From positions 810,001-842,000 of the forward strand of contig NZ_CP045921.1 of NCBI RefSeq assembly GCF_025273655.1: 32,000 bases of DNA, given 5' to 3'. Positions within the stretch are counted from its first letter, which is position 1, and each line of letters starts with the position of its first letter. Source of the stretch: Candidatus Saccharimonadota bacterium (GTDB lineage: Bacteria; Patescibacteriota; Saccharimonadia; Saccharimonadales; Saccharimonadaceae). The position numbers and the translations under genes are program-made. Below are positions 253-32,000 of this stretch, piece after piece. The notes under the pieces were generated by a model. It worked only from the letters and a program-made list of their open reading frames with translations, made no database searches and was not told the origin of the DNA.

Positions 253-1473
253 CTAGCGTCCGTCCCCGTTTGTCCAGTCGGTCGCGAGATCAAATCCGTG
301 CGGATGCACCGCAGCGAAGCCACCAGTATCGTAGACTTTACCCGGCCCCATACTTGTCTCGACGACAGAGCAACGTGGGTAGTTGGACAGATTGGCTGCG
401 ATAAGAATGTAGCCGTCTTTATCTACCTTGGCACCGTCGGCGCGGATGGTATAGTCACCGCCGCCACAGGCACCCATGGTCACGTTCATTGGGAGGTCGT
501 AGTAGGTCTCACGGTGTGTCACACCCTTGCTATCGGTAAACTGCTGGGCGCCCTTGGATTTGGTGAGCGGATTGGCGCCTTTGCTGCCAATCACTTCTAC
601 CTGCTCTTTTGGCTCGGTGAGTGTGACACTCTGGATGACCTTGCGACTCACCTCTCGCCCACCTTCACGGACGATTTCGTAGACCACGCTCTTTTTGCCC
701 GTTGCACCCGGCGTTTGCACGGCACGATAGCTAGTCGGTTGGTCGGCATCGAGAATTTGGCGTGTCGCAAACGACACCTCTTCTTCGACCGTAGTCGTCT
801 GGAGACCTTCTCGCCAGATCTCGATTGTCATGCCCGAAGTAACAAGTGTCGACTGTGGTACAGACACACTGTCTGTTGCGGTAAGTTTAACGCCTTTTTC
901 CGTGAGCAGCTCACCCACAGTAGCAGCATGTGTGTAAATCTGGCTCGGCGCACCATAGAGCGAGAGCGTCACTGGTACTGCGCGATCGATGATAAGCTTA
1001 CTCCCCACTCCATCACTCAGCACGTCTTCCGACTGAGAAAGCATCAGGTTGTCTTCGTCGCGCACAGCTATGCCAGCATCTCTGGCAATATCGCTCGGTG
1101 CACTTGCCGGAGTGAGTACTTGCTCGCGCTTCATACCATCTACTACCATGACAGGACGCGCTCGGTAGATATTGACCGTGTAGTTCTGAGCTGCATAGAC
1201 AGTGTCAGCGGCAGGCTCCACACGGTCGTGGGTAGCGAGTGGAATTTCGGCTTGCCTCAGCGTATCGGCTACTGTTTGAGCTCGCGTGAGTACGACACGC
1301 TTTTGCCCCTGATCATAAATGGTGATGGCGTGTTGCTTGTCGCTCCGCGAGCTACTAGGCGACGCGGCAAATACAGTGCCGGTTGCGCCAACTGTCAGCA
1401 ACGCAAAAAGCGCCACGAACAAGCCAATTCGTGGCCGCATGAGTGACATTACACACATAGTTAGTAATTTCAT
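253..1473 (-). CDS. Secreted cell-wall hydrolase, DUF348 repeats + G5 domain + C-terminal 3D (YabE/YocH/RlpA-like) domain
   Basis: The 406-aa ORF has an N-terminal signal/anchor (RIGLFVALFALLTVGATG). It shares about 70% identity with the neighbouring paralog over the DUF348/G5 part (ITIYDQGQKRVVLT, YTVNIYRARPVM, G5-like KKSVVYEIVREGGREVSRKVIQSVTLTEPKEQVEVIGSK). The C-terminus (YYDLP..GACGGG..IRADGAKVDKDGYILIAAN..VVETSMGPGKVYDTGG) resembles the 3D domain. The exact start among several Met codons is uncertain. Confidence 0.8.
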   Translation of the reverse strand: MKLLTMCVMSLMRPRIGLFVALFALLTVGATGTVFAASPSSSRSDKQHAITIYDQGQKRVVLTRAQTVADTLRQAEIPLATHDRVEPAADTVYAAQNYTVNIYRARPVMVVDGMKREQVLTPASAPSDIARDAGIAVRDEDNLMLSQSEDVLSDGVGSKLIIDRAVPVTLSLYGAPSQIYTHAATVGELLTEKGVKLTATDSVSVPQSTLVTSGMTIEIWREGLQTTTVEEEVSFATRQILDADQPTSYRAVQTPGATGKKSVVYEIVREGGREVSRKVIQSVTLTEPKEQVEVIGSKGANPLTKSKGAQQFTDSKGVTHRETYYDLPMNVTMGACGGGDYTIRADGAKVDKDGYILIAANLSNYPRCSVVETSMGPGKVYDTGGFAAVHPHGFDLATDWTNGDGR

Positions 1474-1554
1474 AAGAGGTGGCGATGCTTCGTACTCTCA
1501 CAAAAGCTATCTATACCATCATACCACATATGGAGCAATAATGCAAGTATAGCA

Positions 1555-2715
1555 CTAGCGGTATATGTCTTGCAGACCAAGTTTGCGCGAGCATGACGGC
1601 CACGGCGACCAGCCGCGTGATTTATACGTCTGCCAGGCTTTTTCGTCTTGGACTGCCGGTGGTGCCAGCGAGGCGTTGGCATAGCCACCGAAGTTTGCCC
1701 AGGTGCTGATGTCGTACTGATATGCACCGTAATAGCCGTTGCCCGTATTGGAGGTATAGCTTCCCTCACACGAACGTAGCTGTGACAATGCACCGGCAAA
1801 GCCACCATTGGCCGTACTATCAATCTTGGCGCCGACCACTACTACTTCCTTCTGCGGTTGCTGGGTCACAACGCTCTGAATTTCTTTGCGTGCAACTTCT
1901 TGACCGTTTTTCATTGTCACTTCGTAGGTGACGGTTTTTTTACCTTTTACGCCAGGCGTACGCACTTGCTTGTAACCCACAGGTTGATCACCGTCCTGAA
2001 TCTGCTCAGTGCCGAACTCCACATCTTGATCCTCATTAACTGTCTGAACACCGTTACGCCAAATTTCGACCGTCATACCCTCGGAGATCGCAGTTTCCTG
2101 CGCCACAGAGACTGTATCATCCGTCGCCAATGTGACAGATTTCTCCTTTAGCAAGTCGGCAACGGTAGCAGTATGTGTGTAGACAGTAGTACGTTTGCCA
2201 TAGAGCACAAGATTGGCGGTGGTCGCTCGGTCGACGAGCAGTTTACTTCCCACGCCATCGGCCAACACGTCCTCGGACTGGGTAAGCGTCAATTTATCTT
2301 CGTCATGGAGCGCTAGGCCAGCATGCTTGGCAATATCACGAGGCGAACTATACGGCGACAATACTTGCTCGCGCTTCATACCGTCGACAATCATGACAGG
2401 GCGTGCTCGGTAGATATTGACCGTATACTGCTGTGCAGCATATTCGGTATCGAGTGACGGCTCAACCTTGTCGTGATCGGACAGCGTGACATCGGCTTGC
2501 TTGAGTGTGTCGCGCACCGTGTGAGATTTGGTAAGCACTACTCGCTTCTGCCCTTGGTCATAGATAGTGATAACATGCTGACCACGAGGCACTGGCTTGT
2601 CACTTGCCGCACCGACGCTATGCGTCAGACCGATCATAGCAGCCAAAAGTACGACAGCAATACACGCTACGCGCAGCGTCACCAGACGATGGTAATACTC
2701 TGTACTGATTTTCAT
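1555..2715 (-). CDS. RpfB-like resuscitation-promoting-factor protein (DUF348 repeats + G5 + Rpf transglycosylase-like domain)
   Basis: The 386-aa ORF has an ATG start and a signal/anchor (VACIAVVLLAAMIGL). It has the same DUF348/G5 core as 253..1473. The C-terminus (LRSCEGSYTSNTGNGYYGAYQYDISTWANFGG...EKAWQTYKSRGWSPWPSC) matches the Rpf lysozyme-like signature (CE(S)GG..NTGNGYYGGLQF..TW..GG...WPxC). Confidence 0.85.
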   Translation of the reverse strand: MKISTEYYHRLVTLRVACIAVVLLAAMIGLTHSVGAASDKPVPRGQHVITIYDQGQKRVVLTKSHTVRDTLKQADVTLSDHDKVEPSLDTEYAAQQYTVNIYRARPVMIVDGMKREQVLSPYSSPRDIAKHAGLALHDEDKLTLTQSEDVLADGVGSKLLVDRATTANLVLYGKRTTVYTHTATVADLLKEKSVTLATDDTVSVAQETAISEGMTVEIWRNGVQTVNEDQDVEFGTEQIQDGDQPVGYKQVRTPGVKGKKTVTYEVTMKNGQEVARKEIQSVVTQQPQKEVVVVGAKIDSTANGGFAGALSQLRSCEGSYTSNTGNGYYGAYQYDISTWANFGGYANASLAPPAVQDEKAWQTYKSRGWSPWPSCSRKLGLQDIYR

Positions 2716-13145: not shown

Positions 13146-14110
13146 TGGCAACATCTACGCCCGCCATCGAAGTCCATGGGCTCGAAAAGCGTTTCGGCGA
13201 CAACAAGGCCGTCGACGGTATCGACCTTGTCGTACCAAGTGGCATGATCTATGGAGTCTTGGGGCCAAACGGCGCCGGCAAAACCACCACCATCAACATG
13301 CTTGCCACACTCATGCGCCCAGATGGAGGCAGCGCCAAAGTCTTCGGCCACGACGTGGTACACGAAGCACAGGTCGTACGCCAGCTCATCGGCGTCACCG
13401 GCCAATATGCGTCGGTTGACGAGAAACTCTCGGCTATTGAAAACCTGGTAATCTTCGGCCGTCTACTCGGTTTGAGCAGCAGCGAGGCCAAAGCGAAAGC
13501 GGCTGAGTTACTGGAAGAATTTGGACTCAGTGATGCCGCAAAGCGCCCACTGAAGAACTTTAGTGGCGGCATGCGTCGTCGCCTCGACCTTGCCGCCAGC
13601 TTGATCGCCCAACCACCCCTTATCTTTCTCGATGAGCCAACAACTGGTCTCGACCCACGCACGCGCAACCAAATGTGGGATACGATTCGCAAGCTGGTCA
13701 AAAGCGGCTCGACAATCCTACTCACTACCCAGTATCTCGAAGAGGCCGACCAACTGGCAGACCGGATAGCCGTGATTGACCACGGACACGTCGTAGCCGA
13801 AGGCACACCAAACGAACTCAAGAAATCGATTGGCAACGCCACACTCGTGCTAGGTATCAAGCACAAAAAGTACATGGCAGAAGCAGCCAAGATCGTCGAA
13901 AAAACACTGAAAGTTAAAACTCAGCAGCCCGAACAAACAGTCATCACAGCGCCGATGAAAGACGCTGATACAGTTACGGACTTACTAATCAAACTCCGCA
14001 CAGCTGATATCGAAATCGATGAGCTCAGCGTCCAAAAACCAACCCTCGACGAAGTCTTCTTCGCCATCACCGGCAAACCGGCCGAGAAAAAGGAGAACGA
14101 AAATGAGTAG
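13145..14110 (+). CDS. ABC transporter ATP-binding protein (DrrA/ABC-2 exporter type)
   Basis: Motifs are Walker A GPNGAGKTT, Q-loop, signature FSGGMRRRL, Walker B LIFLDEPTTGLD and the H-loop. The C-terminal regulatory extension is typical of DrrA-like ATPases. Confidence 0.9.
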   Translation: MATSTPAIEVHGLEKRFGDNKAVDGIDLVVPSGMIYGVLGPNGAGKTTTINMLATLMRPDGGSAKVFGHDVVHEAQVVRQLIGVTGQYASVDEKLSAIENLVIFGRLLGLSSSEAKAKAAELLEEFGLSDAAKRPLKNFSGGMRRRLDLAASLIAQPPLIFLDEPTTGLDPRTRNQMWDTIRKLVKSGSTILLTTQYLEEADQLADRIAVIDHGHVVAEGTPNELKKSIGNATLVLGIKHKKYMAEAAKIVEKTLKVKTQQPEQTVITAPMKDADTVTDLLIKLRTADIEIDELSVQKPTLDEVFFAITGKPAEKKENENE

Positions 14111-14924
14111 TACTACCGCCACAATCACACCGGGCGAAAAACGAACGCTCAAAAATCACGTCAGCTTAGGCCAAACAGTTAGCCAATCGCTCACCATGGC
14201 GCATCGTGGCCTCATAAAGGTTCGTCGCAACCCCGAACAGCTGTTCGATGTAGTATTCCAGCCCATCATCTTTACTGTCATGTTTACTTACCTTTTCGGT
14301 GGTGCTATCGCCGGTAGCGTCGCGAGCTATTTGCCTATCATTATCCCTGGTATCCTGGCACAGACCATCATCACCGCCAGTGTAGTAACAGGCACACAGC
14401 TACGAGAGGATATGGATAAGGGCGTGTTTGACCGCTTCAAAAGCCTGCCGATTGCTCGTATCGCGCCACTATCTGGTGCACTGATCGCCGACACAGTACG
14501 CTACCTCATTGCCACAGTGCTCACATTCACCATGGGCTATCTTATGGGACTGCGTCCAGACGGTGGTTTCGGTAGCGTCGTCGTTGCAAGCCTGCTTGTC
14601 ATCGCTTTCGCCTGGTGCCTTAGTTGGATCTTCGCGTTTTTCGGTGTCATTGCCCGCTCAGCATCGAGCGTGCAGGGCATTTCCATGCTCATCCTCTTCC
14701 CGCTCACCTTCTTATCGAATGCGTTTGTACCGGTCAATACCATGCCAGGCTGGCTGCAGTGGTTTGTAAATATCAATCCAGTTTCGCACCTCATCACCGC
14801 GATTCGAGACCTCATCAATCACGGCACAATAGGCGGAGATTTCTGGCTCAGTGTCATTGGTGCACTCGTCATTTTGGCTATCTTCGCACCGCTGACAGTT
14901 CGCGCCTATATGCATAAAGCCTAG
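14103..14924 (+). CDS. ABC-2 type transporter permease
   Basis: The start ATG at 14103 overlaps the ATPase stop (ATGAGTAG). The product is a six-helix hydrophobic protein of 273 aa (RNPEQLFDVVFQPIIFTVMF...). The upstream 28 codons of the track ORF lie inside the ATPase gene. Confidence 0.85.
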   Translation: MSSTTATITPGEKRTLKNHVSLGQTVSQSLTMAHRGLIKVRRNPEQLFDVVFQPIIFTVMFTYLFGGAIAGSVASYLPIIIPGILAQTIITASVVTGTQLREDMDKGVFDRFKSLPIARIAPLSGALIADTVRYLIATVLTFTMGYLMGLRPDGGFGSVVVASLLVIAFAWCLSWIFAFFGVIARSASSVQGISMLILFPLTFLSNAFVPVNTMPGWLQWFVNINPVSHLITAIRDLINHGTIGGDFWLSVIGALVILAIFAPLTVRAYMHKA

Positions 14925-14991
14925 CGATTGACGCATGCACGGCACTCCCGCATAATAAGAGATAAATATACTACCGCAAACGAGGGACCAT

Positions 14992-17391
14992 ATGGGGAAT
15001 TTTCTGCAAAAACTAGGCGCGCGCGCGTTTGAACTAAAATGGGTGATTGTGCTTGTATGGATCGTCATACTCGGCATACTCGGTGCCACGGCTGCGCATT
15101 ACTTCAAATCACCGACCAGTGCCATCAAGATTCCTGGCACCGAGGCACAGAAAACATTTGATCGCTACGGGGAGCTCTTCCCAGACGAAGGTAAAGGCTC
15201 CGGCCGTATCGTGTTCTATACTGCCGACGGCCAGGTACGAGACCACGCTACAGAGATCAACCAGCTCCTTGCACGGATTGACGATGTCGACAATGTTTCG
15301 GCCGTGATTAGCCCCTTTACCAACCCCAAAGGTATCTCGGACGATGGCAAAACCGCCTATGCCATACTTCAGCTCGACGGCACTATCGGTTCAATCGACA
15401 AAGCCACAACAGATAAAGTCGAATCACTTGTAGGTGACGCACGCATTCAAGGTGTAGAAATTGACAGAGGTGGAGATTTGGTACGCAAAGTGCCAGACGA
15501 AATCCTCGGCGTGGGCGAAATCGCCGGCGTACTGATCGCCCTCATGGTGCTCCTCATCACCCTCGGCTCACTTATAGCTGCCGGTATGCCAATTATCACT
15601 GCGCTCGTCGCAGTGGGTGCTAGTGCAGCCGGACTCTTCTCACTCAGTCAAGTCATCGAAGTCAACTCCACCACTCCGGCACTCGCCATCATGCTTGGCT
15701 TGGCTGTTGGTATCGATTACTCCCTCTTCATTATCAATCGCTACCGCAGTCTGCTGCTTGAAGGCTATGATTACAAGACGGCCGCAGCCCGTGCGATCGG
15801 TACCGCTGGTAGCGCCGTACTTTTCGCCGCTTCTACTGTCGTAATTGCGCTCGCCTCGCTCACTGTCGTGCAAATTCCATTCATGACCACCATGGGACTC
15901 ACGGCAGCTGCTACCGTAGCAGCTGCCGCTATCATTGCAATCACACTGGTACCAGCCATGCTAGGTATCGCGGGCAAGCATGTATTTCGCGGTAAAACAC
16001 GCCAAGCAATTGCCGATGCCCAGAAACGCGGTATCAAACACAATGAACATGCGCCACACCGCTCGGGCTGGTGGAAATGGGGCAACACAATCACCAAATA
16101 CCCGTATGCTATCATCGCTGTCGCCGTACTTATTATCGCTGTCATCGCCTATCCAGTAAAAGACATGCGCCTCGGCCTCCCTACTGACGAATTTGCCGCC
16201 CAAGGCTCATCTGAACGTATCGCCTACGATCGACTCACCGATGGCTTCGGTGCCGGATTCAACGGCCCCCTCCTCATCTTGGTAGAGAACATGCCCCAGA
16301 CTTCACAAGCTGACAAAGATACGGTACGAAATGCCGCAATGGCCGAATTTAATAAACAAGTAGCCGCCCAGACAGAGTCTGCACAAACGGCTATCCAGGC
16401 GCAAATGGCGCAGATTACTACTCCAGAGCAAGCCGTTGCCCTGCAGCAGCAAATCGCAGCCCAACAAGCAGCCGGTGAGCAAAAGAAGCAAGAAGCACTA
16501 GTCGCTATAGACAGGCAAGTCGAACAATACGCACCGCTCGTGCAGTACAATCAGATCGCCCAACGTATCGCAAAACAAGACAACGTTGACCAAGCGCTAC
16601 CTGTCACTACAGCAAATAACGGCACCGTAGGTGTGATCCAGGTGGTACCGAAATCCGGCCCAAGTGACGCCGCTACTGGTGATCTCGTCAACAAACTGCG
16701 TGAATCTGACACCCAAGACAACGTGCTCGACAACACCACTGCCACACTCGGTGTCACCGGCACTACTGCTATGCAAATTGATATCAACAAGAAACTGTCT
16801 GCTGCACTGCCCGTCTACCTAGCTGTTGTCGTCGGTCTGTCGCTTATCTTGCTCGTGATTGCGTTTCGCTCCATCTTAGTACCAATCAAGGCAACTCTCG
16901 GGTTCCTTCTCTCGGTGGCGGCGATGTTCGGCGCTCTTGTAGCTGTATTCCAATGGGGGTGGTTTGGTATCGCCGAGGCACCAGGACCTATCGTCACCAT
17001 GCTGCCTATCATCGGTATTGGTATCTTGTTTGGCCTCGCTATGGACTATGAATTTTTCCTCGTCTCTGGCATGCACGAAGCGCACCAGCACACCGGCGAC
17101 GCACACAAAGCCGTCCTGCGTGGCTTCTACCAGGGGGCTAAAGTCGTGGTGGCTGCAGCAGCTATCATGGTATCCGTCTTCGCTGGCTTCATCTCCAACC
17201 ACGACACCACCGTACAGGCACTTGGTTTCGCGCTCACCGTTGGCATCTTTGTCGATGCGTTTCTGGTGCGCATGACTATCGTACCGGCCGTCATGCAGCT
17301 CCTTGGTAGTAGCGCCTGGTGGCTACCAAAGTGGCTCGACGGTATCTTGCCGCATATCGCAATCGAGGGCGAGTCAGACAACAAAGCATAA
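14992..17391 (+). CDS. MMPL family (RND superfamily) membrane transporter
   Basis: The 799-aa ORF has two 6-TM bundles, each preceded by a large extracytoplasmic loop. The MMPL signature is LGLAVGIDYSLFIINRY, with GLAMDYEFFLVSGMHE in the second half. A possible own promoter is TTGACG(14928)-17-CATAAT(14951). Confidence 0.9.
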   Translation: MGNFLQKLGARAFELKWVIVLVWIVILGILGATAAHYFKSPTSAIKIPGTEAQKTFDRYGELFPDEGKGSGRIVFYTADGQVRDHATEINQLLARIDDVDNVSAVISPFTNPKGISDDGKTAYAILQLDGTIGSIDKATTDKVESLVGDARIQGVEIDRGGDLVRKVPDEILGVGEIAGVLIALMVLLITLGSLIAAGMPIITALVAVGASAAGLFSLSQVIEVNSTTPALAIMLGLAVGIDYSLFIINRYRSLLLEGYDYKTAAARAIGTAGSAVLFAASTVVIALASLTVVQIPFMTTMGLTAAATVAAAAIIAITLVPAMLGIAGKHVFRGKTRQAIADAQKRGIKHNEHAPHRSGWWKWGNTITKYPYAIIAVAVLIIAVIAYPVKDMRLGLPTDEFAAQGSSERIAYDRLTDGFGAGFNGPLLILVENMPQTSQADKDTVRNAAMAEFNKQVAAQTESAQTAIQAQMAQITTPEQAVALQQQIAAQQAAGEQKKQEALVAIDRQVEQYAPLVQYNQIAQRIAKQDNVDQALPVTTANNGTVGVIQVVPKSGPSDAATGDLVNKLRESDTQDNVLDNTTATLGVTGTTAMQIDINKKLSAALPVYLAVVVGLSLILLVIAFRSILVPIKATLGFLLSVAAMFGALVAVFQWGWFGIAEAPGPIVTMLPIIGIGILFGLAMDYEFFLVSGMHEAHQHTGDAHKAVLRGFYQGAKVVVAAAAIMVSVFAGFISNHDTTVQALGFALTVGIFVDAFLVRMTIVPAVMQLLGSSAWWLPKWLDGILPHIAIEGESDNKA

Positions 17392-27102: not shown

Positions 27103-27111
27103 TGCTACAAT
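27103..27111 (+). promoter_or_regulatory. Extended -10 element TGcTACAAT of pilin gene 1
   Basis: It lies 13 nt upstream of ATG 27125. An identical TCTGCTACAATA..CCATAA..ATGAGGGA arrangement recurs at 31541-31565 before the paralogous pilin. Confidence 0.45.
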
Positions 27112-27124
27112 AGCCATAAACGTC

Positions 27125-27592
27125 ATGAGGGATGCACAACAGAGTAATGCTGGTTTTACGGTGGTCGAGATGCTTGTCACAGTGGTGCTAGCTGGTATTT
27201 TTATCGCATTCTTTGTGCAGATGTTTCGTGCAACCTCCGCCCAGCAGTCAGCACTCATACGTCAGGCCACGGCCAACGATATCGCACGCTCCAACCTGAG
27301 CAAATTCCCCACTGTTGCCTCCATCGCGGGATACACCTGCGACACCAACTCTAGCACAAGCGCCAACACTAATAACCTGACTATAAATCCAAATGCCGCT
27401 GGCACCGCTATCCTGTCTGACAGTCAAAAAGAAACCGACCCGGGCACTATCGGTACACTTGTCCAAACAGTGCGGGCACTTTCGCCACGAGGTTGTAGTG
27501 GTAGCTACCTACCTGTCAAAATCGTATCGACAGTCGAATATGGGTTCACCGGCCAGCGTGACACAGTGGAGTATGCCACCTATGTCTTCTAG
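27125..27592 (+). CDS. Type IV pilin-like protein (prepilin-type N-terminal cleavage/methylation signal)
   Basis: The leader MRDAQQSNAG|FTVVEMLVTVVLAGIFIAFFV has G-1, F+1 and E+5 followed by a hydrophobic helix. The protein is 155 aa with a Cys pair in the C-terminal half (C..C). The track ORF start at 27005 runs through the tRNA and terminator and is rejected. Confidence 0.8.
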   Translation: MRDAQQSNAGFTVVEMLVTVVLAGIFIAFFVQMFRATSAQQSALIRQATANDIARSNLSKFPTVASIAGYTCDTNSSTSANTNNLTINPNAAGTAILSDSQKETDPGTIGTLVQTVRALSPRGCSGSYLPVKIVSTVEYGFTGQRDTVEYATYVF

Positions 27593-28418
27593 GCCCCGAC
27601 AGCGACATGGCTTCACTGTACCCGAACTACTTGTTGCTATCACTATCTCGGGAATCATTCTCGTTGGGCTTATATCGCTATTCGTTGGGCTGGCCAACAA
27701 CAGTGCTGCGGTTATCAAGACATCCGACCAAATTCGTAACAACAACACCGTCATCAGCTCCATCGAAAGTGACATGCGTCTTACCAAATCCTTTCGTGCT
27801 ACAGCTTCGCTCGCCGACGGCGACTCAACAGCTTCGCCTATACAGCCTAGCGGTTGGGTATTCCGCGGTATCGACAGCAACAGCCGCATACTTATCCTAC
27901 AAACCTACGCCACCACCACCAATAGCAAGGCAGACGAACGACAGATCGTCTATAGAGACGATGGACTCGGTGGGTGCCCAGTCGGGCTCAATCCGGTCTA
28001 CAACAATATTATCTATTTCCTAAAGGATGACACACTCTACCGACGTACACTCGTAGAAGCCACGCCTCCCCCTTCTACTCAGTACTGCGGCAGCACCCCA
28101 ACAGACTCTGTTGCCACTATTTCGCAGAAGCAAACCTGTACCGACGGACAAGCAAGTGGCATGCCCAGCAATTGCCGAGAAAAAGACGTTGCTCTCGCAA
28201 AAGGCATAACTCAATTTTCTATCCAGTATTATCAAAACCCCAGTGACAGTACTACACTTAACTCTGTATACAGCATGACAGACACAGATGCCAACACCGC
28301 GCTCAGCGGCACTAGTTCACTTCGTATCGATGTCACAACCAAGGGAGAACCGACAGCAAATATTGCAGACATTGCGTCGTATCGTCGCCTCTCGAAAGGA
28401 GCACTCCGTGTATTCTAA
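27582..28418 (+). CDS. Minor pilin-like protein (PilW/GspJ-like size) with a prepilin signal
   Basis: The leader MSSRPRQRHG|FTVPELLVAITISGIILVGLISLFVG has G-1, F+1 and E+5. The protein is about 278 aa. The start is ATG 27582 (GGAG 10 nt upstream) or ATG 27573, and it overlaps the pilin 1 stop. Confidence 0.75.
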   Translation: MSSRPRQRHGFTVPELLVAITISGIILVGLISLFVGLANNSAAVIKTSDQIRNNNTVISSIESDMRLTKSFRATASLADGDSTASPIQPSGWVFRGIDSNSRILILQTYATTTNSKADERQIVYRDDGLGGCPVGLNPVYNNIIYFLKDDTLYRRTLVEATPPPSTQYCGSTPTDSVATISQKQTCTDGQASGMPSNCREKDVALAKGITQFSIQYYQNPSDSTTLNSVYSMTDTDANTALSGTSSLRIDVTTKGEPTANIADIASYRRLSKGALRVF

Positions 28419-31400
28419 TACCCGCCAACAGGGCTTCATACTGCCAGCGCTGATCGTACTCTCACTGTTACTCATGTCGATGGGGCTAGTTGCTCTTCAG
28501 TACGTTGCGTCTTCTACCAACTCAGTCCAATCAGCATTTTATAACAATATGTCTAAAGAGGTGGCCCACGCAGGCGCATCCCTCGCATACAGCTGCCTCC
28601 GTAGCAACGGTGGCGCCGCCCAGTGGACAGGTAGCAAAAAAGCCCTAACCGTAGGAAGCGACTGCGCGGGTATTACCTACGCCGGCGGAATAGACTGTGC
28701 AGCAGGCAGAGATGCCAGCATAGCTCCCGATACCAGCACCCTATCACAGGGACCAAATGGTAGCTGGAAATCCCGGTTCATCGTATGCGAGCCGACAGTG
28801 GGCACTGGAGGTATTAGCTATATCGCAAAAGGCATTGTCGAATTCTACTATGCCGGAAGTAGTACTCCCACGCGGAGCTTCACAAGCCTCACAAAAGTCA
28901 ATATTCCGTATGATCTCAGCGCCTCAACAGTCCGCAAAGCTGTCGGCAAGGCAGTCACCCAGATGGAATCTGGCGGCAACTCCAACTGCGCCATTGCCAA
29001 TCAACAGTTGTATTGCTGGGGCGTCAATAACGTAGGTCAGATGGCACAGGGTGGCTCTGACACCGCAAGCCGCTCCTCACCCACACTTATCACCACTGGT
29101 GCCTTGAGCGGTAAACGGGTCACCTACACATCGATGGGCTACACAAATGGTTGCGCCATTGCCGACGGTCGCAGTTATTGTTGGGCAATCAACCAACGCG
29201 GCCAACTTGGCAATGGCACAGCACCAGGCTTTCTATCGGATTTCGATATCGTCGCACTACTTGCTGCGACGCGCTACCAGCCGACTCAGGTCACTGGCCC
29301 ACTCGCAAACGTTAATACTACCAAAATATCTGCCAGCTGGGCCCTAGATAACAATGCCGATCGCTCCCATAGTTGCGCACTTGCAAACGGTGCAGTATAT
29401 TGCTGGGGAAGTAACTACTATGGACAGCTCGGACAGCCGAAGTACGAAGGCGCCGTAGATGTACTCTGTGCGGCAAGTGGATGGGTAGCTGGCTACATTT
29501 TATTCGTGCCGTCTTCGTGGCTCTGCCCCAAGCCAGAATATACGGGCATGAGCATTGGTGACAATCACGACTACTATTCACCATCTCCAATTCTAGGCTT
29601 CGGCTCTCGCCCCCAAGAAAGCCAGGGGCTTTTCTATGGCAAACGCGTTACAGACTTCGACACTGGTGTATTTGGTGATTGTGCAATTGCCAATGGCTCA
29701 GTATATTGCTGGGGAGAGAATACACTACAGGTTCGAGGGTCGGCAGATCCCCTCGGGGGACTCACGACACAATCGACCAATGCGCTCAAGCAGGGTGATT
29801 TATCTGGCCGTTACGCTACATCCGTCGCTGCCGCCTCTACATCGGCATGTGCGGTAGCCGATGGCCGTATGAACTGCTGGGGACGTTTGCGTGGTGATGG
29901 CGTCGATAATGTAGTCGGTAATAGCACGCCTAAGGCCGTCACTGGGCTACCGGATGGAGATAAAGTTATCGACAAAGTCAAAAGCTCTACCGAGCTCTCT
30001 GGACCAATCTGCGGCTTCGGATCTGGTGACTCTTACTGTTGGGGACTGAATCAGCCCGGTACTGCAAGTCCCCTGCATGTCAGGCCAACCATGCTTAATA
30101 CCAATGAATCAATTACAGATGGGGGCACCGGTGGTGGCGCAGCTGGTCTCTTTGGCATAGGTGGCACCCCCGGCAACAGTTGCTATGTCGCAAATGCAAC
30201 CGTTTACTGTATCGGCAATAACGAATATGGTCAGCTAGGAAACGGCACTACGGGCGGATCATCTGGTAGCTCATTTGTGAAAGCCAATACCATAGGTCTC
30301 ACCGACGGCAAAGCCGCCACCGACATCTCGTCTGGCACTGACTACAGCTGCGCAATAATCGATGGTCAGCCTTACTGTTGGGGCAACGGTAGTAGCGGCA
30401 AGCTTGGTAACGGCGACAGTCTCAATCGCACCCACCCATATGGTGTCAATGGCCTGCCCGACTCGACGTCGTCGACACAGGTTACCGCCGGCAACGCTCA
30501 TTCATGCTCAATCACAGGCGGTCACGCCTACTGCTGGGGTAGCAATGCGTCTGGGCAAGTCGGAAGTGGTGCTAATAATCCACAACTATCTGCTCGTCTC
30601 GTGACGGGTAGTGGTTTTGAAAGTATGGCAGTCACCGACATCTCAGCCGGGCGAGATCACACTTGTGCTGTCGCAAATAGCAAGGCCTATTGCTGGGGAC
30701 TTAACACTTATGGCCAACTTGGCAATAACACGACTACTGCAACAGGTACGCCTACAGCTGTCCGAGCCAACAGTGGCGATGCACTATATGGCAAACAGGT
30801 GACCAAAATCGTTGCCGGTGATCGATTCACCTGCGCGATCGCCGACGGCCAGCCTTACTGCTGGGGGGAGCGCGCTAGCGGTAAAATTGGCAATGGTGGT
30901 AGCACTAGTGGCAATACACTACTCCCCGCGGCTGTATCAAATATGACAGGCGCTTCCACCGATCTTGAAGCTGGACCAGATTATGCGTGCGCTATCGAAA
31001 GCGGCATACCGAAGTGTTGGGGCGAAAATCAGTACTACCAACTCGGTATTAATAGCACCGTTGATCAGACGACTCCCACTACCAACACCACATTACAAGG
31101 TAGCTCTAGTAGTCCAAAAAACACCACTTCCATGGCTCTTGGAACCTCTAGCGCCTGTGCAATTACCAATGGTACCACCTACTGCTGGGGCAGTCGTGCC
31201 AACGGGCGCATCGGTAACGGAGGCACCACTACTGGTAACACTGCCACTCCTACGGCAATCACGGAAGTCAACTCTACGACAGACCTAGGACCCCAAAATA
31301 CTCCGTATAAACTGTCGGCTGGCAGCTTCGGCTCTTGTGCGATAGCCAACGCCCGCATCTATTGCTGGGGTGACGGCAGTCAAGGCCAGATGGGTACCGA

Positions 31401-31494
31401 CACCACACCTTCAGCCACACTCGCACCAGGTATCACTGCCGACTATACACGAGATGTCACTATTATCTCTTGGGCAAATACTATCTTCTACTAA
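28408..31494 (+). CDS. Giant PilX-N-like pseudopilin fused to 14 RCC1-type beta-propeller repeats
   Basis: GTG at 28408 lies 5 nt after AAGGAG (28397-28402) and overlaps the upstream gene by 11 nt. The N-terminus VYSNTRQQGFILPALIVLSLLLMSMGLVAL has no Glu at +5, as in PilX_N-type minor pilins. It is followed by 14 repeats of the pattern C(A/S)I..G..YCWG.N..GQLG.G. Confidence 0.8.
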   Translation: MYSNTRQQGFILPALIVLSLLLMSMGLVALQYVASSTNSVQSAFYNNMSKEVAHAGASLAYSCLRSNGGAAQWTGSKKALTVGSDCAGITYAGGIDCAAGRDASIAPDTSTLSQGPNGSWKSRFIVCEPTVGTGGISYIAKGIVEFYYAGSSTPTRSFTSLTKVNIPYDLSASTVRKAVGKAVTQMESGGNSNCAIANQQLYCWGVNNVGQMAQGGSDTASRSSPTLITTGALSGKRVTYTSMGYTNGCAIADGRSYCWAINQRGQLGNGTAPGFLSDFDIVALLAATRYQPTQVTGPLANVNTTKISASWALDNNADRSHSCALANGAVYCWGSNYYGQLGQPKYEGAVDVLCAASGWVAGYILFVPSSWLCPKPEYTGMSIGDNHDYYSPSPILGFGSRPQESQGLFYGKRVTDFDTGVFGDCAIANGSVYCWGENTLQVRGSADPLGGLTTQSTNALKQGDLSGRYATSVAAASTSACAVADGRMNCWGRLRGDGVDNVVGNSTPKAVTGLPDGDKVIDKVKSSTELSGPICGFGSGDSYCWGLNQPGTASPLHVRPTMLNTNESITDGGTGGGAAGLFGIGGTPGNSCYVANATVYCIGNNEYGQLGNGTTGGSSGSSFVKANTIGLTDGKAATDISSGTDYSCAIIDGQPYCWGNGSSGKLGNGDSLNRTHPYGVNGLPDSTSSTQVTAGNAHSCSITGGHAYCWGSNASGQVGSGANNPQLSARLVTGSGFESMAVTDISAGRDHTCAVANSKAYCWGLNTYGQLGNNTTTATGTPTAVRANSGDALYGKQVTKIVAGDRFTCAIADGQPYCWGERASGKIGNGGSTSGNTLLPAAVSNMTGASTDLEAGPDYACAIESGIPKCWGENQYYQLGINSTVDQTTPTTNTTLQGSSSSPKNTTSMALGTSSACAITNGTTYCWGSRANGRIGNGGTTTGNTATPTAITEVNSTTDLGPQNTPYKLSAGSFGSCAIANARIYCWGDGSQGQMGTDTTPSATLAPGITADYTRDVTIISWANTIFY

Positions 31495-31540: not shown

Positions 31541-31549
31541 TGCTACAAT
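31541..31549 (+). promoter_or_regulatory. Extended -10 element TGcTACAAT of pilin gene 2
   Basis: It has the same sequence and the same 13-nt distance to the ATG as at 27103-27111. Confidence 0.45.
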
Positions 31550-31562
31550 AACCATAAGGATT

Positions 31563-32000
31563 ATGAGGGATATGCGGAGCGATACAGGTTTTACATTGGT
31601 GGAAATGCTTGTAACAGTAGTACTGATCGGCATATTTATTGCATTTTTCGTACAGATGTTTCGCGCAGGTGCCGCACAACAAGCGTCCATCGTACGCCAA
31701 GCAAAAGCCAACAACCTCGCCTACTCCAACCTCAGCAAATTCCCACGCGCTTCCAGTATTTCACCAGCCTACGTATGTGATACCTCCACCAACACTTCTA
31801 CCAATCAAAATAATCTGACAATCAATCCGAATGCAGCTGGCACACTCATACTTAGTGATGCAAGCGCCAATAAAGAACCGACAGACAGTGCACTGCCTAA
31901 TGCCACGCAGGAAGTCAGAGCATACTCCCCACAGGGATGCGGATCAAATGCCCTGGTAAAACTTATTTCAACAGTAACCTACGGTTTTACTGGCCAACAA
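31563..32000 (+). CDS. Type IV pilin-like protein, paralog of 27125..27592 (3' end beyond window)
   Basis: It is not in the ORF track because there is no stop in the window. My translation reads MRDMRSDTG|FTLVEMLVTVVLIGIFIAFFVQMFRAGAAQQASIVRQAKANNLAYSNLSKFPRASSISPAYVCDTSTNTSTNQNNLTINPNAAGTLILSD...STVTYGFTGQQ. It is colinear with pilin 1 along its whole visible length. Confidence 0.8.
   Translation, partial: MRDMRSDTGFTLVEMLVTVVLIGIFIAFFVQMFRAGAAQQASIVRQAKANNLAYSNLSKFPRASSISPAYVCDTSTNTSTNQNNLTINPNAAGTLILSDASANKEPTDSALPNATQEVRAYSPQGCGSNALVKLISTVTYGFTGQQ

Follow-up and report, generated by a model that had tools for sequence, protein, structure and literature searches.

For the ultrasmall, episymbiotic Saccharibacteria, as for other Patescibacteria, a specific host cell has to be found and held, and little is known of the molecules by which host range is set. 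A 32,000-nucleotide stretch of contig NZ_CP045921.1 from a Candidatus Saccharimonadota bacterium (positions 810,001 to 842,000; the whole stretch is referred to here as the window) raises the question of whether a protein encoded near its 3′ end, in which a pilin-like N-terminus is joined to a long array of RCC1 repeats, is such a molecule. An initial annotation had put forward this 1028-amino-acid (aa) product, hereafter the target protein, as a candidate pilus-tip adhesin. Our analysis makes it fairly likely that the target is a modular type IV minor pilin of the PilX2 type acting as a tip adhesin, in a variant with two propellers. The core of the earlier idea was favored by the operon, the synteny, the N-terminal motif, the structural model, the lectin modules of relatives and the design of the published PilX2 protein, and disfavored by the lack of a match between the N-terminal module and any pilin in the Protein Data Bank (PDB).

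RCC1 blades and the predicted double propeller

The 1028-aa open reading frame proposed at the outset was found to be real. Its start was assigned to the GTG at position 28408 because an AAGGAG Shine-Dalgarno box, identified by direct reading, lies 6 nt upstream, the start overlaps the stop codon of the preceding pilin gene (g2) by 11 nt, and the homologues P0001-P0005 are annotated with an N-terminus identical to this call; the stop codon occupies positions 31492-31494. An ATG at position 28288 was rejected as the start, as it lies within g2 and has no Shine-Dalgarno box, and the homologues begin at the GTG position.

Comparison of the target protein with Pfam gave matches to WD40_RLD (PF25390; E = 1.8e-117, 393 bits, cut-off 150) and to the two families against which an HMMER check had been suggested, RCC1 (PF00415; E = 3.2e-65, 217 bits, cut-off 21.7) and RCC1_2 (PF13540; E = 7e-28, 96 bits, cut-off 22). 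These data confirm the presence of RCC1 repeats far above chance level. All 14 blade motifs quoted in the initial annotation were present, and the regular expression C-x8-C-[WI]-[GA] retrieved exactly 14 blades, with cysteine pairs at residues 194/203, 249/258, 323/332, 425/434, 481/490, 535/544, 592/601, 648/657, 700/709, 753/762, 809/818, 861/870, 917/926 and 977/986. The Cys-to-Cys spacing between successive blades was 55, 74, 102, 56, 54 and 57 residues, and 52-60 residues thereafter. When the propeller halves were scanned apart in Pfam, the first matched RCC1 at 2.9e-16 and the second matched RCC1 at 9.5e-54 and WD40_RLD at 8.1e-59. The two halves are 30% identical to one another (E = 5e-27).

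The structure of the target was modelled with AlphaFold2 on a 16-sequence family alignment (mean predicted local distance difference test score, pLDDT, 78; predicted template-modelling score, pTM, 0.75). The model of the full-length protein contains a single helix (residues 13-66), a small beta-sheet with strands between residues 78 and 175, and, behind the helix of about 55 residues and the sheet, four-stranded blades that fall into two blocks. Of these, the second had a pLDDT of ~90, and low-pLDDT loops were found in the first at residues 272-279, 344-385, 398-406, 438-457 and 579-586. Foldseek searches of the PDB retrieved UVR8 (E = 3e-30, target template-modelling score 0.84-0.90 over ~385 columns) and RCC1 (1A12; 2e-23), together with weaker alignments of ~900 columns to double-propeller proteins. 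The model and the half-by-half matches, on which the split rests, thus agree with the earlier prediction that the 14 blades would form two separate seven-bladed propellers.

Blades 3-6 had been described as irregular and as containing long insertions. The first part of this description applies to blades 4-6, in which the GQLG motifs are degenerate and the length is normal; long insertions were found solely after blade 2 (~20 aa) and in blade 3. The blade 3 insertion comprises ~45 aa, as reflected in a spacing of 102 residues between Cys 323 and Cys 425 vs 52-60 elsewhere; it carries an extra cysteine pair (354/373), and its pLDDT is below 50. In the family alignment, the blade 3 segment was the most indel-rich, with 147 columns for 102 residues. 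In comparison with P0012, the paralogue type encoded by a second cassette (see below), the levels of identity were 26-29% for blades 3-6, 46-57% for blades 8-11 and 14, and 34-40% for blades 12-13. Blades 3-6 of propeller 1 thus show the greatest divergence and the most indels, whether the two cassettes or the members of the family are compared, and propeller 1 is therefore a better candidate for specificity than propeller 2. At the strain level, the hypervariable insertions that had been suggested for blades 3-6 were not seen: a homologue with 99% identity has 7 scattered differences, those of a homologue with 80% identity are evenly spread with no hotspot in these blades, and the target gene diverges no more than the flanking DNA in the strain-level comparison.

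The nearly invariant Cys-Trp pair of the blades had been considered unusual for canonical RCC1 proteins. This is the case in comparison with eukaryotic RCC1 proteins, UVR8 having Ser or Val at the blade cysteine positions; on the contrary, nearly all of the best 120 RCC1 matches carry 11-28 C-x8-CWG motifs, which makes the signature the bacterial norm among the proteins retrieved. None of the 28 blade cysteines of the target varies among 16 homologues, the most distant of which is 34% identical. In the model, the paired cysteines lie in register on the two strands of one hairpin (e.g., strands 646-651 and 654-659), four residues either side of a two-residue turn, and face across the strands. 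If this turn is a standard two-residue beta-turn, they would occupy a non-hydrogen-bonded pair position, compatible with a cross-strand disulfide. The placement for intra-blade disulfides, for which a test had been suggested, is compatible with the adjacent strands of the model, from which we infer the bond geometry. One disulfide per blade is present in the crystal structure of the extracellular propeller of the plant protein ACR4 (CRINKLY4; 7A0J), and propeller 2 shows weak sequence similarity to ACR4 (E = 1.2e-7) and to the Streptomyces protein BLIP-II (1JTD; 2.6e-6). Since the blade cysteines face across the hairpin in the model and ACR4 has one disulfide per blade, it is likely that each blade of the target is held by one disulfide staple, which would represent an adaptation to life outside the cell. 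The ACR4 ectodomain and BLIP-II are also seven-bladed RCC1-like propellers that bind outside the cell, although they have single propellers and no pilin module, and their biological context is unrelated.

About 50 of the best 120 RCC1 matches correspond to 14-blade proteins of ~1030 aa (P0014, P0017, P0026, P0030, P0037, P0045, P0061, P0071, P0090 and others), with ~30% identity over both propellers. They share an N-terminal signal that is rich in arginine, MRRGLRYLP...LVWQQQATLASF, and differs from that of the target. Those with a name belong to Propionibacteriaceae, which are Actinobacteria, the usual hosts of Saccharibacteria.

The N-terminal module and the three-gene cassette

The N-terminus of the target protein consists of a short polar leader ending in Gly, MYSNTRQQG, followed by FILPALIVLSLLLMSMGLVALQY, with a hydrophobic segment at residues 10-32. 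This is a class III-type layout with Gly-1, Phe+1 and Pro+4, and with Ala instead of Glu at position +5, in agreement with the pilin-like hydrophobic N-terminus without Glu+5 initially reported. Alignment of 18 N-terminal modules (N-modules) revealed that residues F10, L12, P13, S19, G56, C63, W73, L80, C86 and G88 are invariant, and that the +5 residue is never Glu (A, S, T or G). Expressed in pilin numbering, F+1, L+3 and P+4 are invariant in the family and Gly-1 (G9) is nearly so, being at least 90% conserved; a (G/A)F-x-L-P motif was present in 148 of the 150 best N-module relatives. The pair Cys63/Cys86 is likewise invariant in the 16-sequence alignment. Modelling of the N-module alone (AlphaFold2, pLDDT 81) resulted in a helix (H12-66) and strands between 78 and 167, forming a 4-5-stranded sheet. 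A helix of ~55 residues followed by a small sheet is, as far as the model goes, consistent with a pilin architecture.

An exhaustive HMMER search of 1.84 billion cluster representatives with an N-module profile retrieved at least 861 clusters at E ≤ 1e-3, 804 of them at E ≤ 1e-10. The module was N-terminal in every one of the 861 matches, in proteins whose length ranged from 148 to 1861 aa, and one family cluster member bears the IMG name 'Tfp pilus assembly protein PilX'. About half of the C-terminal parts were RCC1, as a single propeller in proteins of 530-610 aa or as a double propeller in proteins of 900-1030 aa. Among 73 scanned members without the Cys-pair blade motif, we found Gly_rich_2 (19), ricin-B lectin (16) and ConA-like Laminin_G_3 (10) modules and, more rarely, fibrinogen-C (3) and phage tail collar (2) modules, as well as NHL and CBM4_9. 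By analogy with modular pilins (Raynaud et al. 2021, PMC8179133), this pattern fits a carrier for adhesin modules. Conservation was also observed at the opposite end of the target, where Y1013 and R1015 are invariant in 16 homologues. The last residue was F or Y in 27 of 30 RCC1-type family members, an ending that short stand-alone members lack.

Two side observations concern this family and other RCC1 proteins. An aromatic terminus was found nearly always in the long modular members of the family (P0127-P0268); in the target, the tail corresponds to residues 1009-1028 (window 31432-31491). In addition, two multi-blade RCC1 proteins, P0082 (920 aa) and P0112 (1643 aa), begin with a class III signal of the canonical type in which Glu+5 is present (GFTLIESL and GFTLVEVI, respectively). 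These signals point to at least two fusions of RCC1 propellers with pilins, involving two different pilin N-termini.

The target gene forms a coupled cassette with two upstream pilin genes, g1 and g2, in which the gene ends overlap; a tRNA-Lys is located just 5′ of g1. The g1 product matched Pfam N_methyl (1.1e-4) and TIGR02532 (6e-4), with weak matches of the GspH/PilV type, and the g2 product matched the same two families (1.2e-5 and 2.9e-5, respectively). Both showed weak matches to the GspH, ComG and HpsC pseudopilins. Downstream of the target gene, a g1 paralogue (g1') is cut by the window end. The 25 nt ahead of the g1 and g1' start codons are nearly identical, each with a TGcTACAAT box which, to judge from this conservation, would be a promoter-like extended -10 box; a consensus promoter scan did not call the element because there is no matching -35 box.

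The complete second cassette was found in a 596-kb metagenomic scaffold (L001) which is colinear with the window and 97-99% identical to it. In this scaffold, the gene order is 155-aa pilin, 278-aa pilin, 1028-aa RCC1 protein, 154-aa pilin, 260-aa pilin, 963-aa RCC1 protein, murB and two pilins with the N-terminus MSLQTLKDQKGFTIVELLIVIVVIGILAA. Cassette 2 occupies positions 13165-17234, and its 963-aa double-propeller protein (P0012) is 41-43% identical to the target protein (BLASTP and alignment A1). On this sequence evidence, the three-gene cassette is tandemly duplicated in the window genome, with copy 2 starting at position 31563.

Full-length homologues of the target span 34-99% identity, and several are labelled Candidatus Saccharibacteria. 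A profile scan of species-representative genomes with a narrower N-module alignment resulted in four further loci, all of them in Candidatus Saccharibacteria metagenome-assembled genomes. The order E5-pilin, GFT(I/V/L)PELL-pilin and GFxLP-RCC1 protein recurs in five loci (L001 and L003-L006), with g1 orthologues in the same position and the g2 partner kept in all five. In each of them, one or two conserved GFTIVELLIVIVVIG pilins (GFTIVELL) are encoded 1.3-1.8 kb 3′ of the cassette; these proteins have ~150-170 aa, and their N-termini are nearly the same, M[SN]LQT[LV]K.QKGFTIVELLIVIVVIGILAA. The conserved GFTIVELL pilin is likely the major pilin of the fibre.

A probable type IV pilus tip adhesin and its alternatives

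The closest published counterpart of the target is PilX2 of TM7x (Nanosynbacter lyticus), described as a minor pilin whose N-terminus has a lollipop shape and lacks a predicted PilD signal (Grossman et al., bioRxiv 2024, ISME J 2025, PMC12206443). It carries a hepta-bladed RCC1 beta-propeller, and its gene shares a locus with that of the major pilin PilA2; this locus contains pilin genes only and is separate from the assembly ATPases. Deletion of pilX2 reduced host binding from 10.6% to 4.6%, like the deletion of pilA2, and abolished competitive fitness, although the mutant still forms thin pili; the TM7x T4P-2 pilins, of which PilX2 is one, have no part in competence, and the authors proposed PilX2 as a tip adhesin and likened it to PilY1 (PMC12206443). 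The protein has 576 aa, with a pilin module of ~158 aa and a binding domain comprising P159-576; the purified PilX2 domain binds TLR2, and the mutant no longer binds epithelial cells (Nat Commun 2026, PMC13194787). The target protein is from the same phylum and also shows a pilin-like N-module (~160-185 aa in the two proteins) in which neither a PilD signal nor Glu+5 can be recognised and after which a hepta-bladed RCC1 propeller is predicted, and both genes lie in pilin-only loci. The single-propeller members of the family (530-610 aa) agree with the published length and domain borders of PilX2. On the other hand, the target has 1028 aa and two propellers, the first of them divergent and with long insertions, vs 576 aa and one propeller in PilX2; its gene belongs to a tandemly duplicated three-gene cassette. 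Given the published description and the domains of the target, the window protein would therefore have the same design with a second propeller.

Several observations count against this assignment. The likeness to PilX2 rests on the published description, from which we infer sequence homology to PilX2 itself. The PilX-type tip minor pilin of the initial annotation is sustained by the absence of Glu+5, by the position of the gene after minor pilins in the operon and by the synteny, and finds no counterpart in the profile searches: the target N-module gave no match to Pfam N_methyl (PF07963) or TIGR02532, PilX_N (PF14341) matched one of the 18 N-modules at E = 3, and the NCBIfam search of the N-module returned solely PRK10332 at E = 0.07, with no GspK-type match. 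On the side of sequence, the IMG PilX name of one cluster member is the one point in favor. The N-module did not match the sequences of solved pilin structures either, and the Foldseek search of its model against the PDB gave no pilin match (best E = 0.19). When the N-module was compared by hhalign with family alignments for g1, for g2 and for the presumed major pilin, the G-F site was in register, but not significantly so, at a probability below 10%. Genes for PilB, PilC, PilM, PilT and PilD were absent from the 32-kb window and from the 10 kb on either side of the gene in L001. Finally, four single-propeller GFxLP-RCC1 relatives (564-577 aa) are orphan genes with no adjacent pilin, two of them directly upstream of an F-type ATP synthase operon.

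Some of these data would also be expected from a membrane-anchored adhesin unrelated to pili, in which the N-terminal helix, as an uncleaved signal-anchor, would keep the two propellers at the cell envelope and the linkage to pilin genes would reflect co-regulation only. Such an adhesin would account for the lack of Glu+5 and of matches to pilin profiles in the target, for the PilD-type signal that the TM7x authors did not find in PilX2, for the single-propeller orphans beside ATP synthase or ABC genes, and for the thin pili retained by the TM7x pilX2 deletion mutant. However, the G-1/F+1/P+4 register of the target is the same as in the adjacent pilin g2 (GFTVPELL), and the (G/A)F-x-L-P motif is kept in nearly all relatives, which argues against a plain signal-anchor because such an anchor has no reason to keep this register. 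The translational coupling and the conservation of the cassette in five loci, the pilin-like arrangement of helix and sheet in the model, and the TM7x genetics, in which loss of pilX2 has the same effect on host binding and competition as loss of pilA2, also oppose this explanation, and we regard it as unlikely.

It is less likely still that the target primes or caps a short pseudopilus (type II secretion system- or Com-like), with propellers binding cargo or DNA and with the three-gene cassette starting a filament that spans the periplasm or wall and serves in secretion or DNA uptake, since the weak matches of g1 and g2 to GspH, ComG and HpsC, the lack of Glu+5 that is also typical of GspK-type tip pseudopilins (cited in PMC8179133), and the natural competence of Saccharibacteria are opposed by the T4P-2 pilins of TM7x, PilX2 included, being without a role in competence, by the modules borne on the same N-module in relatives, which are of lectin/adhesin types and not DNA-binding or secretion ones, and by the conserved major-pilin-like gene adjoining the cassette.

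According to the reading that we favor, that of a PilX2-type tip adhesin, the leader MYSNTRQQG and the hydrophobic helix would insert the protein in the membrane as a prepilin, which would probably be cut by the prepilin peptidase after Gly9. Glu+5 pairs a pilin subunit with the N-terminus of the subunit above, and the target, because it lacks this residue, would be confined to the very top of the fibre. The complex that primes or tips a type IV pilus would consist of the target and the g1 and g2 products; the shaft of this pilus would be built from the conserved major pilin encoded ~1.5 kb 3′ of the cassette in related genomes, with the machinery encoded elsewhere. The two RCC1 propellers, stapled by their putative disulfides, would then be displayed at the pilus tip, where they would tether the epibiont to its actinobacterial host by binding a ligand on the host surface, most likely a glycan or protein of the cell wall. 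The second cassette, through its RCC1 protein, may supply an alternative tip with a different first propeller.

This arrangement follows the logic of the PilY1/PilC tip adhesins of Pseudomonas, Neisseria and Myxococcus with a different fold family, as had been proposed. In both cases a beta-propeller is placed, or would be placed, at the tip of a type IV pilus, and the minor pilins come first in the gene order and the propeller protein after. PilY1, however, is not a pilin and has a propeller of the IPR008707 family, whereas the propellers of the target are of the RCC1 type and fused to the PilX-like subunit itself. Membership of the target in the PilY1/PilC family was considered and rejected, as Pfam gave RCC1-family matches only, with no Neisseria_PilC, and the N-terminus is pilin-like. 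With the PilX/GspK tip subunits, on which the PilY1/PilC adhesins are carried, the target shares the lack of Glu+5 and its location after other minor pilins in one operon. Modular pilins are also known in Streptococcus sanguinis, the added module being a vWA one in PilB and a ConA-like lectin in PilC (Raynaud et al. 2021, PMC8179133). As in these proteins, a small pilin module of the target would bear a bulky ligand-binding module that the filament displays, and relatives of the window protein bear ConA-like and ricin-B lectins; in contrast, the S. sanguinis pilins have a canonical class III signal with Glu+5 (IPR012902), and the Saccharibacteria N-module has Pro+4, no Glu+5 and no signature match.

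Window features and a possible role in host recognition

Coordinates of the cassette, of related loci and of other surface-related genes in the window are compiled in Table 1. The other genes of the window are housekeeping: glycolysis, a UvrD helicase, G5/DUF348 proteins, an MMPL transporter, a two-component system, FolD and an LPMTG-anchored DUF11 protein. Four regions of the window show further features of the cell envelope or of low complexity. A 618-aa protein without Pfam match has N-terminal transmembrane segments, a C-terminal transmembrane anchor and nine tandem PPTTT repeats in a Pro/Thr/Gly-rich region whose local G+C content is 0.63 vs ~0.52; from these features it is probably a surface protein. 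The DUF11 (CLIPPER) repeat protein ends in LPMTG, a hydrophobic stretch and RRTLG. This ending reads as a signal for sortase-type anchoring to the cell wall, which would fit a monoderm-like envelope. On the opposite strand, there is an acidic, Pro/Ala/Ser/Thr-rich low-complexity protein of 429 aa that has one transmembrane segment, at the C-terminus, and gave no Pfam match, and there are two adjoining DUF348-G5 proteins, one of them with a transglycosylase-like (Rpf-type) domain. DUF348-G5 cell-wall remodelling proteins are typical of Actinobacteria and Firmicutes.

Table 1. Coordinates of the tip cassette, related loci and surface-related genes (window positions unless a locus is named)
Feature	Position	Strand	Remarks
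Extended -10-like box TGcTACAAT	27103-27111	+	5′ of cassette 1; conservation only
g1, 155-aa minor pilin	27125-27592	+	Class III signal MRDAQQSNAG, then FTVVEML; Glu+5 present
g2, 278-aa minor pilin	27582-28418	+	MSSRPRQRHG, then FTVPELL; Pro+4 and Glu+5; 11-nt overlap with g1 end
Shine-Dalgarno AAGGAG	28396-28401	+	Direct reading
Target gene	28408-31494	+	Probable 1028-aa modular minor pilin of PilX2 type, two predicted RCC1 propellers
Pilin-like N-module	28408-28962	+	Residues 1-185; AlphaFold2 model, alignment, profile
Propeller 1, blades 1-7	28963-30177	+	Residues 186-590; divergent, degenerate motifs in blades 4-6
Blade 3 long insertion	29419-29637	+	Residues ~338-410; includes extra Cys pair
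Propeller 2, blades 8-14	30178-31437	+	Residues 591-1010; canonical RCC1-like domain
Conserved C-terminal tail	31438-31491	+	...DYTRDVTIISWANTIFY; aromatic last residue
TGcTACAAT element, second occurrence	31541-31549	+	Precedes cassette 2
g1', start of cassette 2	31563-32000	+	Cut by window end; g1 paralogue, 63% identity
Putative major pilin(s), L001	18547-19613		
Putative major pilin(s), L003	12484-12921		
Putative major pilin(s), L004	7035-8210		
Putative major pilin(s), L005	12235-12702		
Putative major pilin(s), L006	6842-8023		
Orphan single-propeller gene, L007	8001-9725		Neighbours of the four orphans: ATP synthase or ABC genes
Orphan single-propeller gene, L008	225-1940		
Orphan single-propeller gene, L009	801-2534		
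Orphan single-propeller gene, L011	6001-7695		
PPTTT-repeat protein, 618 aa	17732-19588	+	Probable surface protein
DUF11 (CLIPPER) repeat protein, 596 aa	19805-21595	+	LPMTG end
Low-complexity acidic protein, 429 aa	5374-6663	-	
Two DUF348-G5 proteins	253-2715	-	

The kind of protein described here has already been published, with PilX2 of TM7x, and our results extend known biology without adding a new kind of system. The new elements are the form with two propellers, the probable tip cassette, which is compact, has three genes and is duplicated, and the N-module family without Glu+5, with regard to its size and its modularity. A more far-reaching view, which we put forward as speculation and hold to be doubtful, is that the tandem cassettes are a host-range device, with alternative tip complexes on one shaft and the indel-rich blades 2-6 of propeller 1 as a receptor-binding surface that has diverged between the cassettes; the N-module family would then supply the pili of Patescibacteria with plug-in modules for receptor binding, much as tail-fibre cassettes do in phages, and the 14-blade proteins of Propionibacteriaceae might point to an exchange of modules between epibiont and host.

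For the biology of these epibionts, the current picture of type IV pili is unchanged, and the one published in 2025-2026 is widened. Functional data on an RCC1-bearing pilin exist solely for PilX2, which comes from one oral strain. In environmental Saccharibacteria, the version is larger, with two propellers, and belongs to a compact cassette able to duplicate and diverge. The idea that propeller 1 sets specificity is offered for testing, and the N-module without Glu+5, with its many lectin-type modules and at least 861 clusters, provides a concrete list of candidate host-recognition proteins.

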